A stretch of DNA of 5,433 bases, from the IMG/VR virus record IMGVR_UViG_2531839486_000011. One strand, written 5' to 3'. The stretch comes from a virus. Taxonomy: Duplodnaviria; Heunggongvirae; Uroviricota; Caudoviricetes. The notes below the pieces were generated by a model. It was not told the origin of the DNA, made no database searches, and was given only the letters and a program-made list of their open reading frames with translations. A program made the position numbers and the translations under genes. Shown here one piece after another: positions 1-5,217 of this stretch (its first letter is position 1; each line of letters starts with the position of its first letter).

Positions 1-324
1 TCCGCTTGTACAACCCGTAACTGCGGCGCGTACAGCAAGTGTTTGTGCGGCAAGTATGCCAAACCAGTCGGCGGCATTCCGCAGCCGCTTCAGGAGAGCC
101 ACGTCAGATAATGTTGCAACGTCATGGAGCTGAGCCCATGCAGTGACTTCACGTAATGACATCCCCCCGGGGCCGTAAGCCAGCCCCAGACGTAGCAGAG
201 TTGCAGCATCACGAATTTCGCGGCGGCGGGTTAGAGCCCCGGCATTACGTGCCGAAGTATCCAGTTCTTCGGGCTTACCAATATGGGCCAGAATTGCTGA
301 CCAGTTATCGTGAGAGTAATTCAT
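1..324 (-). CDS. insL: IS186 transposase InsL, N-terminal 108 codons (gene runs off the left edge)
   Basis: Minus-strand translation from the ATG at 324-322 gives MNYSHDNWSAILAHIGKPEELDTSARNAGALTRRREIRDAATLLRLGLAYGPGGMSLREVTAWAQLHDVATLSDVALLKRLRNAADWFGILAAQTLAVRAAVTGCTSG, matching my recollection of InsL. It is absent from the ORF track because the window edge truncates it. Confidence 0.85.
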   Translation of the reverse strand, partial: MNYSHDNWSAILAHIGKPEELDTSARNAGALTRRREIRDAATLLRLGLAYGPGGMSLREVTAWAQLHDVATLSDVALLKRLRNAADWFGILAAQTLAVRAAVTGCTSG

Positions 325-379
325 CGGCACGTTAAATCATATCAGGCGTAATACCACAACCCTTAAGTTAGCGCTTATG
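1..379 (-). mobile_element. IS186 (IS4 family) insertion sequence, terminal portion; the element continues beyond the window start
   Basis: The reverse complement of 330-379 reads CATAAGCGCTAACTTAAGGGTTGTGGTATTACGCC..., which I recognise as the IS186 terminal inverted repeat. The transposase start lies 55 bp inside the end. Sequence character changes abruptly at 379/380. The other end is off-window, so the target duplication cannot be confirmed. Confidence 0.85.
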
Positions 380-401
380 GGATTCTCCCCCGCCTGGTCT
401 C

Positions 402-557
402 TTACTCCTCAGGTTCGTAAGCTGTGAAGACAGCGACCTCCGTCTGGCCGGTTCGGATTCGTACCTCGCAGAGGTCTTTCCTCGTTACCAGTGCCGTCAC
501 TATGACGGTTAAACAGATGACGATCAGGGCGATTAACATCGCCTTTTGCTGCTTCAT
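402..557 (-). CDS. hokD: Hok/Gef family type I toxin, 51 aa (small membrane-depolarising peptide)
   Basis: The internal ATG at 557-555 of the 70-aa track ORF gives MKQQKAMLIALIVICLTVIVTALVTRKDLCEVRIRTGQTEVAVFTAYEPEE: one hydrophobic helix followed by the conserved TRKDLCE...EVAVF...AYE core of Hok/Gef/RelF. SD AAGGAG lies 9 nt upstream. Assignment to the hokD/relF subtype rather than hokC is from memory and less certain than the family call. Confidence 0.85.
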   Translation of the reverse strand: MKQQKAMLIALIVICLTVIVTALVTRKDLCEVRIRTGQTEVAVFTAYEPEE

Positions 558-614
558 AGCCTGCTTCTCCTTGCCTTTCGGCACGTAAGAGGCTAACCTA
601 GATTTGCCGTTCAT
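402..614 (-). CDS. Mok-like regulatory reading frame (in-frame N-terminal extension of hok, 70 aa)
   Basis: The track ORF 402..614 shares frame and stop with hok and starts 57 nt upstream (ATG at 614-612, SD-like TGAGG upstream). Chromosomal hok loci have such a mok frame that couples hok translation. Whether it is translated here cannot be judged from sequence. Confidence 0.45.
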   Translation of the reverse strand: MNGKSRLASYVPKGKEKQAMKQQKAMLIALIVICLTVIVTALVTRKDLCEVRIRTGQTEVAVFTAYEPEE

Positions 615-660
615 AGATTGAGCCTCAGATTAATGTTAAGCGTCTTGCAGGACGCGTAAT
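606..660 (+). ncRNA. Putative Sok-like antisense RNA opposite the mok start (coordinates approximate, placed by analogy)
   Basis: Hok loci carry a short antisense RNA complementary to the mok translation-initiation region. A possible + strand promoter is TTGCCT (571-576), 17-bp spacer, TAACCT (594-599), which would start transcription near 606. This is positional inference only. Confidence 0.2.
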
Positions 661-1070
661 GTTAACTGGGGCTTTTCTCTATCTGCCTTTGGTGTTCATG
701 CCTGAGACAGATAGCCTCAAGCACCCGCAGCCATTCTACTTAACTCCCGTTACCTCGCCAATATAAAATCAATCAGAAAGGCGATCCATAAGAACAACAG
801 CAAGACAATAAATTGCCATTACAGCTGCAATAGCCAGCGCACATTTGAGAACCAGCACGACAACCTCCTGTATTGGACGTACACCAGTCCTGATAAATAT
901 GAGGCTGTCTCATCATTGATGAGATACAACTATTGGGTATAGTTTCTGTGATTTTGTTCTGTAGAAATGGAACACAACAACCAGTCACCACCAGCACTTC
1001 TTTAAATACGCCAAGTCCGACGCAAGCTAACCTTCTAGTCCGCTTTGAGCGAAAAGCAGACTGTCACGCG

Positions 1071-1175
1071 TTGAAGTTAATTGTATTACTTAGATAAACA
1101 CTATCATTTTCCTGACGTTAAGTTGTATCTTTGATAGGATTAAAAAACGTATAGATAGCTTATGCTACTGAGGGA
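1071..1175 (+). promoter_or_regulatory. AT-rich upstream region of the 1182-1991 gene with Shine-Dalgarno GAGGGA (1170-1175); promoter hexamers not resolved
   Basis: Several sigma70-like hexamers are present (TTGAAG 1071-1076, TTGTAT 1081-1086 and 1123-1128, TTGATA 1131-1136, TATCAT 1102-1107, TATAGA 1150-1155), but no pair has ideal spacing. The SD sits 6-7 nt before the ATG at 1182. Confidence 0.3.
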
Positions 1176-1181
1176 ATAAAA

Positions 1182-1991
1182 ATGACGAAAATTAGTGAAC
1201 GATGGAAGCACAATGGCATTACTGAAGGTTATTGCAATATTTGTGGGAAATATGGCTTTCTCACAAAAGATCATGTTCCTCCAAAGTGCGCCATAACCTT
1301 AGGCCCTGTTTTGCAGAAAACAGTTAGCGAATTTTTTGGTATTCAGGAACCAGTTAAACCATTAAATGCTAAAAATGGCTCTTATTTCAGAACCATTTGC
1401 AGCCACTGTAACAATAAGGTATTAGGTGGGCTCGATGTTGCAATTGAAAATGTAACAAAGTCCTTTAAAGAACAGTTAAGTCGATATATGAATGGTATGA
1501 ATGTATATCCATTCATTAGAATACCTTTTGATAGCATATCTTTCACTAAGGCTATGATTGGGCACGTGCTATCAGCAACTTCAGTTGAAGATTGTAAAAA
1601 AGAACCCGTAGATAGCCCCTTCTATACACCTTTAAAGGATTATGTTTTGGGTAAAAATTCAAGTTTTGAGGAAACTCATGATATTTACTACTGGTTTTAC
1701 CCACACAGAATGCACATATCCGCTCAAAGTGTAGCATTTATGAACGAAGGACATGTGGCATTTATTTGTGCTTTACATTTTTTTCCTATCGGTTTTATTA
1801 TCACAATGAAAAATGAAGGAACATACCCTGCCCACTCTACAAAATTAGAACTTGAAGATAAATTCCTTACATTTAATATGACCTCTATAAATTATGAGTA
1901 TACGACATTTCCATTTGTAAATCTTAAGGGAAACCAAATGTATGCGATAAGCAACGGTCATACTTGTGTGAGTTATCCAATAATTAAGTGA
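1182..1991 (+). CDS. Hypothetical 269-aa protein with N-terminal HNH-like (His-Me finger, zinc-ribbon) nuclease motif; AT-rich, probably horizontally acquired
   Basis: Long ORF with a good RBS. The protein has C18-x2-C21, D31-H32 (TKDHVPPK), Asn candidates at 62/65 and C73-x2-C76-N77 (CSHCNN), the order expected for a zinc-stabilised HNH fold, although the DH to second CxxC spacing (40 aa) is longer than typical. The C-terminal ~190 aa are unrecognised. Hand-sampled G+C is about 35 percent against about 50-55 percent in flanking genes (not computed over the whole gene). Confidence 0.75.
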   Translation: MTKISERWKHNGITEGYCNICGKYGFLTKDHVPPKCAITLGPVLQKTVSEFFGIQEPVKPLNAKNGSYFRTICSHCNNKVLGGLDVAIENVTKSFKEQLSRYMNGMNVYPFIRIPFDSISFTKAMIGHVLSATSVEDCKKEPVDSPFYTPLKDYVLGKNSSFEETHDIYYWFYPHRMHISAQSVAFMNEGHVAFICALHFFPIGFIITMKNEGTYPAHSTKLELEDKFLTFNMTSINYEYTTFPFVNLKGNQMYAISNGHTCVSYPIIK

Positions 1992-2044
1992 CGGCTAAAT
2001 CATACAATCTACGCATGTTCACTTTCTACATATACCATCTATAA

Positions 2045-2070
2045 TGTCCGCTGTTGGCACAAAGCGGACA
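2045..2070. terminator. Stem-loop between convergent genes (8-bp stem TGTCCGCT/AGCGGACA, 10-nt loop); possible weak bidirectional terminator
   Basis: Perfect 8-bp inverted repeat at 2045-2052 and 2063-2070. On the minus-strand transcript it is followed by UUAUAGAU; on the + strand it is not followed by a U-run. It lies between the stop of the + gene (1991) and the stop of the minus gene (2138). Confidence 0.3.
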
Positions 2071-2137
2071 ACCACGCTAGCTCTACCCTGTGCCACAAAA
2101 TGTCAATTTGCATCTGAACTAATGCACTTTAATCTCG

Positions 2138-2560
2138 TCACTTCAATAAATACCGAACATCACCCTGATAAAACGACAATATGCGCTGCATAACTTCACT
2201 CTTCCGGCACTCGCGACAGATTATGTTCTGACGCCTGTCGTAGCGACGTATTTCTCCGTCAGGTAATGACCAGATAAGGTCCGGATCAACCGCAGATGGT
2301 TTCTTCAGCTTTGCCCTTGAGAGCTTTTTACGGGCATTTTGCCAGTCCTTACGCGCCTGTTCAGACGGGAATAACCCGTAACCAGAGTTGTATACATCGC
2401 CGCTGGCAACCAGTTCTCTTGCGAGAACGCTCATCAGATATCTTGTCGCACCTGTCTTGACTTCCAGTTGCCGTAACGTCTCACGCCCACTCTGGCGTAC
2501 GAGTTCAACAACCTGTCCTTTAATTTTTTCCCGCTCTTCTTGTGTAAAAACTTTTGCCAC
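2138..2560 (-). CDS. Hypothetical phage protein, 140 aa, in the position of the second replication gene (helicase-loader slot); GTG start
   Basis: Track ORF 2138..2560. The start codon is GTG (reverse complement of 2558-2560) preceded by a strong SD AGGAGG 4 nt upstream. It is basic and has a C-terminal CRECRK motif. No family recognised; it does not resemble lambda P or DnaC-type loaders. Confidence 0.7.
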   Translation of the reverse strand: MAKVFTQEEREKIKGQVVELVRQSGRETLRQLEVKTGATRYLMSVLARELVASGDVYNSGYGLFPSEQARKDWQNARKKLSRAKLKKPSAVDPDLIWSLPDGEIRRYDRRQNIICRECRKSEVMQRILSFYQGDVRYLLK

Positions 2561-2600
2561 AAGCCCTCCTGAAAATTACCTCATGACCAGAAATTAACAC

Positions 2601-3671
2601 TTACCCCCTGAAGCCCGGCGGAATTTCGTTATCCGGTTCAGAAATATGATTCACACAACGCTGGTTGTTCGTGCCGCTTACCGGGAGCAACCAGGGGTTC
2701 TCAAAATTCCGGTCCGGTCCAAAAAACGTCGTCGCTCGCTGAACAAATTCCGTTCCCGTTTTCCCGGTAGCCGCCAAGTATCTTGCGTAACGCCTCACGC
2801 CATCCAGCATGGCTTCTGGTGGCACCCCCTCGCGTAATCTGGCCTTCCAGGCACTGAAAGCGGATTTCTTCGGGTTTGCTCCGGCACGCAACGGGTACTC
2901 CCGCCAGACCTGTTCGAACACATCCGGATAATCCACTCGTCCCACAGACTGCCCGGTGTTTTCCGGGACTACCCGATCGGCTTCCCGCTGAATGGCGGAA
3001 TCGGCTTCGGGCTGCTGCAGTTGGTGTGATTGCTCCGGCCTTGCGGTCATCACCTGCTGCACAGCGCCCGAATCGGCTTTCAGCGCATACGCTGAATCGG
3101 CTTCCGGTGTCGTGCCTGCTGGCTGACCAAGATTGACGGTCTGAACATCCCCTGCCTGGTTCGTGGCGTTTTTTACGCCATGGACCATAGTGTTTTGATC
3201 TTCTTGATCTGTATCTTTATCTGTATCTTTATCTGTCGTGACTCGTCGTGACATGTGCGTGACATTTCGTGACGCGCCGTGACAATCGCCATTTTGTTCC
3301 CGCTTTCTTTCCCTCTCTCGCTGCGCCCTCTTGCGCTCTGCAGGAGATTTTGCGGTTTGCGAAATATTGCCGTTGTCCTCTTTAAGCACCTGGCGTTTTT
3401 CCCATCCAGTGATTAAATCACCATCAAGTACCCGCCCCTGCATCGTCTGCAAAATTGAATCAATTACCTCTTCTGTCACGTCGAGCGCACTTGCCAAATC
3501 TTCTGTCGTGACATCAATGTGACCTCGCGTGACATTTCGTGACGCGCTCACCAGGAGGTGGATATACACTGCCATCACTGTTGCAATTGGCTGCCCTGAC
3601 ACTCTGGCAATTGTTCGCCACTTAGGGTCATTTGGCATGTCATGCCATAATCTGAGCCAGGCGTTAGCCAT
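2601..3671 (-). CDS. Putative phage replication initiator / replisome organiser (O-like position), about 356 aa
   Basis: Track ORF 2601..3677 begins at a GTG. The ATG two codons in (3671-3669) has a better SD (GAGG about 5 nt upstream), so I place the start at 3671. It is the third gene of the cro-side operon. The coding sequence contains iteron-like phased repeats and encodes a low-complexity acidic linker (TDKDTDKDTDQEDQ) between two domains, as in lambda O with ori inside the gene. Domain identity itself was not recognised with certainty. Confidence 0.7.
   Translation of the reverse strand: MANAWLRLWHDMPNDPKWRTIARVSGQPIATVMAVYIHLLVSASRNVTRGHIDVTTEDLASALDVTEEVIDSILQTMQGRVLDGDLITGWEKRQVLKEDNGNISQTAKSPAERKRAQRERERKREQNGDCHGASRNVTHMSRRVTTDKDTDKDTDQEDQNTMVHGVKNATNQAGDVQTVNLGQPAGTTPEADSAYALKADSGAVQQVMTARPEQSHQLQQPEADSAIQREADRVVPENTGQSVGRVDYPDVFEQVWREYPLRAGANPKKSAFSAWKARLREGVPPEAMLDGVRRYARYLAATGKTGTEFVQRATTFFGPDRNFENPWLLPVSGTNNQRCVNHISEPDNEIPPGFRG
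3207..3284. repeat. Repeat cluster 1 inside the replication gene: 12-bp tandem ATCTGTATCTTT (about 2.5 copies, 3207-3236) followed by five CGTGAC motifs at 10-11 bp phasing (3237, 3247, 3258, 3268, 3278)
   Basis: Read directly from the sequence. Spacings of 10, 11, 10 and 10 bp equal one helical turn. Candidate origin iterons. Confidence 0.5.
3475..3547. repeat. Repeat cluster 2 inside the replication gene: (C/T)GTGAC motifs at 3507, 3518, 3528, 3538 (10-11 bp phasing) plus an inverted copy GTCACG at 3475-3480
   Basis: Read directly from the sequence. Includes a 21-bp exact direct repeat of cluster 1: GCGTGACATTTCGTGACGCGC at 3257-3277 and 3527-3547. Confidence 0.5.
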
Positions 3672-3741
3672 ACTCACCTCTTCTGATACCGAATCTTTTA
3701 CTCACGAGTTGCCGGAAGCGATTCGATATGGCTATTATCAC

Positions 3742-4167
3742 TCAATGCACTGCCACAGCATTTCCTGCCGGGCCACCACGGTTCATCTGATTGAAACCGG
3801 CGATTGCCACTGCGACAAAATCATCAGCGTCTCTCACCAGTCGCTCCCGCGTCTCCACCAGCTCCCGAAAATAAGCTGAACTGTGGCTGCGCATTCTGGC
3901 CACCAGCAAAGGTGGCATTGCCTTTTCGATCGCTGGTAACAACGCCTGAATTTTTTCAACTGCATCAGGGGTGTCTTTCTCTACCCAGCGGAAAATTTTC
4001 TGGGTATTGCGAGCCAGGGCTTCCGGATGGCTGTCGTCATACAGTTCTGGGAACGTCATACCCAGTTCAAAATAAGCCCTGGTTATTTCAGCTGCCGGAA
4101 CTTTTTCACCGTCCGGATGCGCCCAGGCATTCATCGCCATGCGGATGTGTTCATGCTTGATTTTCAT
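3742..4167 (-). CDS. ydaT: YdaT-like protein (CII-position protein / toxic component of the Rac-type YdaS-YdaT module), 141 aa
   Basis: Track ORF with ATG at 4167-4165 and SD AGGAG 8 nt upstream. The N-terminus MKIKHEHIR and the size match my recollection of Rac YdaT. It is the second gene after the Cro-like gene and overlaps its stop by 17 nt. Confidence 0.7.
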   Translation of the reverse strand: MKIKHEHIRMAMNAWAHPDGEKVPAAEITRAYFELGMTFPELYDDSHPEALARNTQKIFRWVEKDTPDAVEKIQALLPAIEKAMPPLLVARMRSHSSAYFRELVETRERLVRDADDFVAVAIAGFNQMNRGGPAGNAVAVH

Positions 4168-4432
4168 GAATCAAGCTCCTAGAAAGTGGTTGTGTTAACG
4201 TTTTGGTATCTTCCAGCTCGGGCCAAATATTCATCCAATCAAAAGGCCTTAGTTGCTGACGTGTAACTTCACCATTACTGGCTCGCTCAATAAGGACACA
4301 TAACGATGCCCCTAACACTTGACCTTTACTCAATGCCTTTCTTAGATAACCGATGCTGGTACCACACTCGCATGCAAACATACGCTGTTCATCTGACGAA
4401 AGAGAATTGAGAAATATTCTTAATTCTTCCAT
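4151..4432 (-). CDS. ydaS: Cro/YdaS-like small DNA-binding protein, 93 aa
   Basis: Track ORF with ATG at 4432-4430 and SD AAGGAG 6 nt upstream. It is the first gene of the operon divergent from the repressor. The motif ...IERASNGEVTRQQLRPFDW...WPEL resembles the YdaS/Cro-like family (recalled, not searched). Confidence 0.7.
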   Translation of the reverse strand: MEELRIFLNSLSSDEQRMFACECGTSIGYLRKALSKGQVLGASLCVLIERASNGEVTRQQLRPFDWMNIWPELEDTKTLTQPLSRSLIHENQA

Positions 4433-4532
4433 AGCTACTCCTTAGTAAACACAGTAAAGAATACCCACAGGTAAACAAAAGTCAATACCCACAGGTTGTT
4501 TACCTTGCGGTAATCGCATCTATTATTTACCT
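4433..4532. promoter_or_regulatory. Divergent promoter/operator region between the Cro-like gene and the repressor gene, with two operator-like sites TACCCACAGGTA (4462-4473) and TACCCACAGGTT (4486-4497)
   Basis: Minus-strand candidate promoter: -35 TTGACT (4485-4480), 16-bp spacer, -10 TATTCT (4463-4458). Plus-strand candidate: -10 TATTAT (4521-4526) placing +1 at about the repressor ATG (4533), with no SD, so a leaderless mRNA as for lambda cI from PRM; its -35 is weak. The two sites are 24 bp apart and overlap the promoter elements. Confidence 0.45.
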
Positions 4533-4952
4533 ATGGACAAATATGAATTTAGACGACAGCAACTCATCAAAATTCGTGATGAGAAATGCGATGGTAAAGC
4601 GGTTAACGTGGCCAGAAAGATCGGGCGCGAGCCTTCTTATGTATCAAGAATGTTGTACCCAGAGGGGAAAAAGGGAAAAAAACGGATCGCTGATGATATG
4701 GTGGAGATTATCGAAGAGTCCTTTGGGTTACCCCGGGGATGGATGGATGGTATCGTTTCATCATCAACGAACACAGCCTCCAGTTATGAAACAAGGGTTC
4801 TAACGCCACGACAACGTATTTTTTTAGATCTCTTAGACGAACTGCCAGAAAGTGAAGCGGATAACTTATTAAAAACTCTTGAAGAGAAAAAACAGTATTA
4901 CAATATGATCTACGAAGAAATCCGTAAAAAGAAAGCACAAAACGCATCATAG
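4533..4952 (+). CDS. Prophage repressor-like HTH DNA-binding protein, 139 aa (cI/RacR functional position)
   Basis: Track ORF with ATG at 4533 and no SD (consistent with a leaderless transcript). Probable helix-turn-helix around GKAVNVARKIGREPSYVSRML. It is divergent from the Cro-like operon. No peptidase S24 motif was recognised. Confidence 0.7.
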   Translation: MDKYEFRRQQLIKIRDEKCDGKAVNVARKIGREPSYVSRMLYPEGKKGKKRIADDMVEIIEESFGLPRGWMDGIVSSSTNTASSYETRVLTPRQRIFLDLLDELPESEADNLLKTLEEKKQYYNMIYEEIRKKKAQNAS

Positions 4953-4994
4953 CTCACCAAACAACTAGTCACCAGTTAAGACACCGCAAAAAGT

Positions 4995-5035
4995 TACCCA
5001 TGGGTATTTACTTTTTAAATACCTATGGGTATCCT
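4995..5035 (+). promoter_or_regulatory. OL/PL-like region: perfect 12-bp palindrome TACCCATGGGTA (4995-5006) and near-copy TACCTATGGGTA (5020-5031) flanking a candidate promoter (-35 TTTACT 5007-5012, -10 TATCCT 5030-5035)
   Basis: Palindromes read directly from the sequence. They share the TACCCA...GGTA half-sites of the two sites in the divergent region, with a similar 25-bp centre spacing. Located downstream of the repressor gene and upstream of the small + strand genes. Confidence 0.45.
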
Positions 5036-5217
5036 TCTTTTCATACCAACCCACCCCGCCCCACAGAATGCAGGGCAATACTTCGAGTTACCAGGCAGTG
5101 GTCAGGGGTTAAGTAGCCAGCCCGAGGCGTAAGAACATGACGGCAGGGTTCAACTTTAATAACTATGCAGCAGGTTTTTGTTCCGCTACCCCGGCGTTAA
5201 GGGGAAATGAGGTCAGC

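Follow-up and report, generated by a model that had tools for sequence, protein, structure and literature searches.

The DNA analysed here (the window) is a stretch of 5,433 nucleotides (nt) from a Caudoviricetes virus record, IMGVR_UViG_2531839486_000011. It represents the part of a lambdoid prophage that comprises the immunity, replication and nin-like genes, and its early-right operon carries a type I toxin-antitoxin locus of the hok/mok/sok kind, beside which lies one end of the insertion sequence (IS) IS186 (Table 1).

The hok locus and the adjoining IS186 end

The toxin gene of the locus encodes a Hok protein of 51 amino acids (aa). Its open reading frame (ORF) begins with an ATG at 555-557 and ends with a TAA at 402-404 on the minus strand, matches Pfam family PF01848 (HOK_GEF; score 81.6 bits, cut-off 22, E 3e-23) and is named WP_000813254.1 (HokD) by PGAP in the identical DNA of two other loci (L001 and L002, see below); the same accession is found in the relB-relE-hokD locus of the K-12 type (L010). 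As a preliminary description of this DNA had stated, the toxin lies inside an in-frame, 70-aa mok-like frame. The ATG of this frame (612-614) is preceded by GAGG, 8 nt upstream. HokD/RelF of K-12 is toxic when over-expressed. A side observation concerns the codon for Tyr47 of hok, UAC, which is followed by G (window 416-419, minus strand): UACG is presumably a context for A-to-I editing by TadA, which would recode this tyrosine to cysteine. A preprint surveying the Hok family describes editing for hokB and also refers to something similar for the hokC, hokD and hokE mRNAs.

Upstream of hok, Rfam family RF01794 ('sok') is matched from end to end at 552-726 on the minus strand (110 bits, gathering score 59, E 3e-25). 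In spite of its name, the model of this family reads in the hok sense, as it also does at K-12 hokC and hokE, whose antisense genes sokC and sokE have their annotations on the strand opposite to it; the match thus delimits the hok leader, from the +1 (~726) to the hok ATG, and we rejected it as a marker of the direction of Sok. The predicted hok promoter, which is of the sigma-70-like type, puts the +1 at ~726, in agreement with the first base of the model. For the antisense gene, the putative promoter was placed by homology with the region upstream of K-12 sokC, and was not flagged at 571-599 by the consensus promoter scan. When mapped through the alignment, the annotated ends of sokC fall at 606-682 and those of sokE at 607-681. 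The predicted Sok has a single-stranded 5' tail over the mok ATG, a long hairpin and then CUUUUCUCU; its fold (-33 kcal/mol, z -5.8) was equalled in stability by none of 200 shuffled sequences. It would hence cover the mok initiation region and have a predicted promoter and a terminator hairpin of its own. The hok promoter and sok, which had previously been guessed to lie within about 560-760, can now be placed at 761-733 (minus strand) and 606-682 (plus strand), respectively. Judged by sequence, the hok ORF, the mok frame, the leader, the hok promoter and the sok gene are all intact and identical to those of uninterrupted copies.

The end of IS186 adjoins this locus on the 3' side of hok. Window 1-379 (379 nt) is 100% identical to each of the three copies of K-12 MG1655 (IS186A, B and C), whose terminal stretch, ...AACCCTTAAGTTAGCGCTTATG, is matched at 379, where the terminal inverted repeat ...CCCTTAAGTTAGCGCTTATG closes the element. 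The IS186 terminus thus stands where it had first been reported, with 22 nt (380-401) between it and the hok stop codon; the boundary with the target is uncertain by 1 nt, as G379 is assignable to either. The transposase gene, insL, is co-oriented with hok, both being on the minus strand. Its start codon is at 322-324 and its first 108 codons are open as far as the window edge, so that the gene is incomplete here; PGAP annotates identical DNA as an IS4-like, IS421-family transposase. Only this end of IS186 is held in the window, the far side of the element being outside it. The copy of the target left in the window (379-391) supplies the loop and the 5' arm of a GC hairpin that follows the hok stop codon, and the 22-nt stub of the 3' untranslated region (UTR) keeps this arm and loop but not the 3' arm.

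Table 1. Position, strand and basis of the features annotated in the window
Feature	Coordinates	Strand	Basis
Transposase-proximal end of IS186 (IS186/IS421)	1..379	-	K-12 identity, terminal repeat, junction, translation, PGAP
IS186 target motif GGGATTCTCCCCC; hok-strand reading GGGGGAGAATCCC	379..391	.	junction comparison with L001 and other IS186 insertions
Retained hok 3' UTR stub, 22 nt (mRNA nt 326-347)	380..401	-	alignment to L001
hok toxin ORF, 51 aa, same as K-12 HokD/RelF	402..557	-	Pfam; PGAP accession WP_000813254.1
70-aa mok-like frame, same phase as hok	402..614	-	ORF list, sequence; K-12 mokC/hokC annotated alike
hok mRNA leader (tac, ucb, Sok target, mok translation initiation region)	558..726	-	Rfam RF01794; folding
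Predicted sok promoter: -35 TTGCCT (571-576), 17-nt spacer, -10 TAACCT (594-599)	571..599	+	homology to K-12 sokC upstream region
Predicted Sok-like antisense RNA, ~77 nt	606..682	+	annotated K-12 sokC and sokE ends mapped through alignment
ucb (AAGCCCC), mRNA nt 53-59	674-668	-	folding
tac, mRNA nt 1-12	726-715	-	folding
Predicted hok promoter: -35 TTGGCG (761-756), 17-nt spacer, -10 TAGAAT (738-733)	733..761	-	consensus scan
29-aa strongly hydrophobic ORF, GTG start, MLVLKCALAIAAVMAIYCLAVVLMDRLSD	769-858	-	adjoins hok promoter upstream, co-oriented
269-aa ORF, unknown	1182-1991	+	opposite strand to early operon, between Ren-like gene and hok
Ren-like gene	2138-2560	-	
Replication initiator	2601-3677	-	
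CII/YdaT-like gene	3742-4167	-	
Cro/CI-like gene	4151-4432	-	
Repressor-like gene	4533-4952	+	

The separated 3' module and the predicted RNA folds

An uninterrupted version of the locus is available in enterotoxigenic E. coli (ETEC) strain 120899 (L001), which a direct check showed to be 100% identical to the window over 379-1180 and which is collinear with it over 379-4172 at 99.3%; several complete E. coli genomes likewise match 379-1180 at 100% and have no IS there. The hok 3' UTR of this reference measures 93 nt, 22 of which still adjoin hok in the window while 71 do not. The separated 71 nt comprise the 3' arm of the GC hairpin, the fold-back inhibition element (fbi) and the intrinsic terminator. 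In the reference the hairpin, GGCGGGGGAGAAUCCCUCGCC, begins 8 nt past the hok stop; beyond the position of the junction the RNA continues with CUCGCC..., then with CCUCAACGCACCC, which is fbi, and then, 3' of fbi, with the terminator, AACCCGCUUCGGCGGGUUUUGUUUUUU (also given as AACCCGCTTCGGCGGGTTTTGTTTTTT). In the window IS186 sequence follows mRNA nt 347, fbi is not contiguous with hok, the post-stop hairpin is split by the IS, and the terminator is present in the uninterrupted locus only. The alignment therefore upholds the earlier proposal that the 3' UTR was truncated or replaced by the IS, as the complete 3' UTR does not fit into 380-401. We also rejected the idea of a dead remnant independent of the IS, a case that the preliminary description had allowed for, as neither the ORF nor the leader nor sok differs from the uninterrupted copies (100% identity). 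By analogy with comparable loci, in which it lies on the far side of the IS, the missing 3' module has probably been displaced and not deleted. Had the insertion been a simple one, the sequence to the left of the IS would read ...GGTGGCGAGGGATTCTCC(C) and run on into the fbi and terminator of the reference, with a duplication of 10-11 bp.

The prototype of these systems, hok of plasmid R1, is established to have a closed mRNA form, in which tac pairs with fbi, and an open one, in which tac pairs with ucb; according to this model, the open form can be translated but is also the target of Sok, whose binding leads to decay by RNase III (PMC9841398). In the minimum free energy (MFE) structure of the intact 418-nt mRNA of the uninterrupted reference, nt 1-12 (GGGUGCUUGAGG) pair with nt 374-386 with a probability (P) of at least 0.97, a predicted pairing that would correspond to the tac-fbi closure defining the closed hok mRNA. 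When the intact mRNA is shortened to 372 nt or less, its 5' end pairs with nt 53-59, and the same tac-ucb stem is predicted for chimeric hok-IS186 RNAs of 347, 600 and 726 nt; in the longest of these, nt 1-8 are engaged with nt 53-59 at P 0.92-0.96. The metastable hairpin of the 5' end is present in the fold of a 400-nt chimera and is largely retained in that of a 500-nt one. By prediction, then, tac has two alternative pairings, one with ucb and one with its local metastable partner. In the chimeras folded (347-726 nt), no stable substitute for fbi was found in the 379 nt of the IS; a substitute inside the element was considered and rejected, since its sole contact amounted to 4 bp and appeared at one length (500 nt). 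In addition, the energy of the post-stop hairpin goes from -17.3 kcal/mol in the intact RNA to -6.7 kcal/mol in the chimera, where most of the 3' arm has given way to IS sequence.

IS186 insertion sites and related loci

All the IS186 junctions that we examined fall in hairpins made of a G-run, 5-6 nt and a C-run. In K-12 such hairpins, of the G4N6C4 type, hold IS186 at hokC (target GGGGATCACTCCCC, IS in the opposite orientation to hok), at hokE (co-oriented) and, outside the hok genes, at the nupC terminator (target GGGGATAATTCCCC); the target of the window fits G4N6C4 less perfectly. The same type of hairpin is occupied in a plasmid hok (L006) and in another prophage hok (L007). Among the other loci compared, the element is co-oriented in two hokD-type loci (L002 and L003), where the junction is 1 nt off that of the window and the duplications are of 11 and 10 bp, and it has the opposite orientation in L008 and L009. 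Duplications of 10-11 bp of the same hairpin sequence were seen at L002, L003, L009 and K-12 hokC. Outside the IS, the window contains a single G3-4 N5-7 C3-4 motif, that of 379-391, and we ascribe the insertion at this site to the match between the hairpin and the target preference of IS186. The consensus target of the element is reportedly a GC-rich palindrome composed of a G-run, N6 and a C-run, and the site in the window comes close to it.

A co-oriented IS186-hok junction is present in 1017 of the 5426 complete E. coli genomes (counting matches that span 80% or more of a junction query of 121 nt). The matches sampled from these 1017 were mostly hokC/mokC, with 88.6% identity, together with plasmid-borne copies of the hokD type. 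At the closely related (98-99% identical) hokD-type locus a co-oriented IS186 junction was found in only 7 of the 5426 genomes, all seven with a 1-nt offset relative to the window, whereas 4563 have an uninterrupted hokD-type 3' UTR. As a side observation on hokC, many genomes carry a co-oriented IS186 at this gene, while in K-12 MG1655 the element sits in the same hairpin in the opposite orientation (L004 versus hits H82-H91); the occurrence of both orientations at one locus implies either independent insertions or IS-mediated inversion. The exact junction of the window had no match in the scan of genome_contigs, and none of the 5426 complete genomes covers the whole of a 1-1180 query. Two loci from viral_contigs (L008 and L009) were ruled out as the same junction on account of the opposite orientation of their IS and the 96-97% identity of their hok. 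The exact junction is thus absent from the collections searched, although the protein, the locus and the IS are each identical to catalogued sequences.

What lies in the window is a locus of an already known kind, and another case of the IS186 insertion long known at K-12 hokC and hokE. Pedersen & Gerdes 1999 reportedly described K-12 hok genes in which the stop codon is closely followed by IS186, and the K-12 genome bears out the earlier statement that some of its hok loci have an IS directly downstream, with IS186 at 18-19 nt past the stops of hokC and hokE. Compared with these two, hokC(gef)/mokC/sokC-IS186A and hokE/sokE-IS186B, the locus of the window shows both similarities and differences: (i) the toxin family and the leader architecture are the same (RF01794 scores 118 and 84 bits at hokC and hokE). 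(ii) In all three, the post-stop GC hairpin is the site of IS186, at a distance from the stop of 19 nt in hokC and 18 nt in hokE, versus 22 nt here. (iii) The element is co-oriented with hok, like that of hokE and unlike IS186A at hokC. (iv) The gene hit is a hokD-type paralogue, with 88.6% identity over the junction query to co-oriented hokC junctions. (v) The locus belongs to a lambdoid prophage, whereas hokC and hokE occupy sites of the chromosomal backbone.

The situation with K-12 hokD (relF), found downstream of relBE in the Qin prophage, is different. Its Hok protein is identical to that of the window (WP_000813254.1), the DNA is 98.5% identical from the terminator through the ORF, and a DUF968 (ydfU) gene lies downstream in both. 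However, K-12 hokD has a complete 3' UTR, with hairpin, fbi and terminator, while its homology with the window ends at ~571, everything further upstream (mok start, sok, ucb, tac and promoter) having given way to relE. As far as their sequences go, this comparison shows K-12 hokD and the window allele to be complementary halves of one ancestral locus. We also observed that the K-12 breakpoint (L010 1740-1830) coincides exactly with the -35 of the sok promoter as predicted here and precedes the hok ATG by 14 nt, so that the hok Shine-Dalgarno sequence is kept and all upstream control is replaced by relE.

With regard to hok/sok of plasmid R1, folding of the intact homologue recovered the tac-fbi closure, the tac-ucb form and the metastable hairpin, in accordance with the published model; the overlap of mok with hok, and a Sok made of a 5' tail and a terminator hairpin, are further similarities. 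Unlike in R1, mok is in frame with hok, as in K-12 mokC; the protein and RNA sequences have diverged, the locus is carried by a prophage and not by a plasmid, and the 3' module is detached. Relatives without the IS are found in phages and prophages. The hok/sok region with its upstream spacer is 100% identical to the locus of ETEC strain 120899 and 91.9-97.5% identical to the hokD/hokW-mokW loci of the lambdoid Escherichia phages Tritos, Evi and mEp460, all in the same position, between replication/Ren-like genes and DUF968-RusA-Q genes. These uninterrupted loci, which occur in the temperate phages Tritos, Evi and mEp460 and in Stx2 phages, with HokD or MokW as the annotated name, differ from that of the window in having a continuous 93-nt 3' UTR and no IS.

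Functional state of the locus and its prophage context

We consider that this hokD-type hok/mok/sok locus of a lambdoid prophage, whose post-stop hairpin has been hit by IS186, is most likely disarmed while Sok is made. Without fbi, the hok transcript would be unable to take up the closed, stable and untranslatable full-length form, and would by default assume the tac-ucb 'activated' fold, be bound by Sok and be destroyed by RNase III; without the 3' hairpin, there would be no barrier to 3' exonucleases. Lacking both the closure and the barrier, the locus could not accumulate a reservoir of activatable hok mRNA, and no delayed killing would be expected as long as Sok is made. In R1 hok, single substitutions that break a C-G pair of the terminal 3' stem abolish both the truncated mRNA and toxicity, and the authors blame 3'-5' exonucleases for the absence of the truncated mRNA in the two mutants tested (PMC9841398). 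The earlier suggestion that the locus is 'probably deregulated or silenced' can thus be divided: silencing is the better supported half and deregulation the less supported one, since the insertion in addition breaks up the hairpin by which, in R1 hok, the active mRNA has its 3' end protected. From the predicted folds and the analogy with R1 we infer that 'disarmed' is to be preferred to 'deregulated and toxic'. According to one paper, IS186 at K-12 gef/hokC is thought to disrupt fbi and processing (PMC3562002).

Several points weigh against this interpretation. Its functional steps all derive from structure prediction and from the R1 and K-12 precedents, and the position of the displaced module, on the side of the IS that the window does not hold, from analogous loci. 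Moreover, the same paper reports K-12 gef/hokC, with IS186 at the equivalent place, to be still transcribed and antisense-regulated (PMC3562002), so that 'disarmed' should not be equated with transcriptionally dead. This last finding would also suit a locus made more dangerous by the insertion: if loss of fbi rendered every transcript translatable at once, the cell would depend constantly on Sok to restrain a leakier toxin, with, for example, quick killing upon transcription stop or phage infection. The chimeric RNA is indeed predicted to adopt the open tac-ucb fold, translatable in R1, and, as in the uninterrupted copies with which they are identical, the hok ORF, the two Shine-Dalgarno sequences and the promoter are intact. 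We nevertheless regard such deregulation as unlikely. The open form is also the one bound by Sok and degraded by RNase III; weakening of the 3' stem by a single base costs the active species and toxicity, and the 3' arm is for the most part missing here; to kill once transcription has ceased, the mRNA would have to persist longer than Sok, and it is this property that has been lost; and IS186-bearing hok alleles are common and evidently tolerated.

A different objection to a disarmed locus starts from the orientation of the IS. IS186 has no convincing intrinsic terminator on its hok/insL strand, where the only candidate is a weak 5-bp stem, and with hok and insL co-oriented transcription could thus run on as far as the displaced fbi and terminator. 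The hok transcripts would then cross the 1.34-kb IS up to the original terminator, and their 5' end would pair with fbi across a 1.7-kb loop, giving a long closed mRNA that could still be processed and activated. In keeping with this, the MFE structure of a hypothetical 1768-nt read-through RNA of the closest complete analogue (L002) still pairs tac (nt 1-12) with the displaced fbi. An MFE structure ignores kinetics, however, and the tac-ucb/metastable 5' end would be exposed to Sok and ribosomes while 1.4 kb are made; insL-translating ribosomes, Rho and endonucleases would break the transcript up, and 3'-end processing would find no protective hairpin beside hok. As, in addition, the orientation is not conserved, insertions at the same site being opposite at K-12 hokC, L008 and L009, and the far side of the IS lies beyond the window, a functional read-through mRNA seems very improbable. 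It is possible, though on balance we doubt it, that IS186 simply landed on a preferred target in a prophage locus already without selectable function, and is functionally irrelevant. The element is found in G-run/N5-6/C-run hairpins wherever examined, a non-hok terminator included; hok/sok shows no secondary decay (100% identity to uninterrupted copies), as would be seen after a recent neutral event; and uninterrupted chromosomal hok loci are reported not to mediate post-segregational killing, so that the IS may have changed little phenotypically, which also weighs against the reading favoured here. Yet the uninterrupted hokD-type 3' UTR of 4563 of the 5426 genomes and of viable phages argues for maintenance, and a neutral hit concerns selection and not the molecular consequence of the insertion, being compatible with a disarmed locus.

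The remainder of the prophage region offers some side observations. IS186 lies within the rightward early operon, with the replication/hok genes on one side and those for DUF968, RusA and Q on the other; in the uninterrupted reference, hok is followed by a small gene for a hypothetical protein and then by the genes for DUF968, RusA and the antiterminator Q (L001 320-2857). The insertion could exert a polar effect on the activation of late genes, and the inducibility of the prophage might change as a result. The 269-aa ORF has paired CxxC motifs near its N-terminus and a full-length match to phrog_21495 (unknown function) only, with no Pfam or PADLOC match; in RefSeq it is the hypothetical protein WP_000161640.1, and its position resembles that of a moron, which would make it a candidate for an accessory or exclusion function. 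The 29-aa ORF has no match in Pfam or PADLOC either and is unannotated in the RefSeq genomes inspected; it contains a weak terminator-like stem at 834-815. Iteron-like repeats lie within the replication initiator gene at 3202-3283, where a series of repeats containing CGTGAC comes after three 12-mers in tandem (TCTTKATCTGTM), and 260 nt away, at 3505-3543, where there is a second 39-nt copy, 72% identical; they are probably the phage origin. Finally, operator-like repeats flank the repressor-like gene, in the divergent promoter region (4459-4515) and again just downstream of the gene (4990-5036): AATACCCACAGGT occurs twice, and TACCCATGGGTAT and TACCTATGGGTAT make up a 21-nt inverted repeat. 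An Rfam match to mir-2041 at 4995-5031 was dismissed as spurious, since it corresponds to this operator-like palindrome.

Beyond correct annotation, the significance of this insertion is small. The uninterrupted and IS-bearing versions, 100% identical across hok/sok, represent a natural allele pair for the roles of fbi and the 3' hairpin. A much broader reading, to which we give little credence, is that IS186 is a systematic and recurrent disarmer of hok genes across E. coli, the hairpin that stabilises their mRNA happening to be a near-perfect target, and that this amounts to a real relationship between toxin and IS. Were it true, hokC, hokD-type loci, hokE and plasmid copies would have been hit independently and in both orientations, and in the co-oriented cases a constitutive hok promoter may also drive insL, tying the expression of the transposase to the promoter of the toxin.

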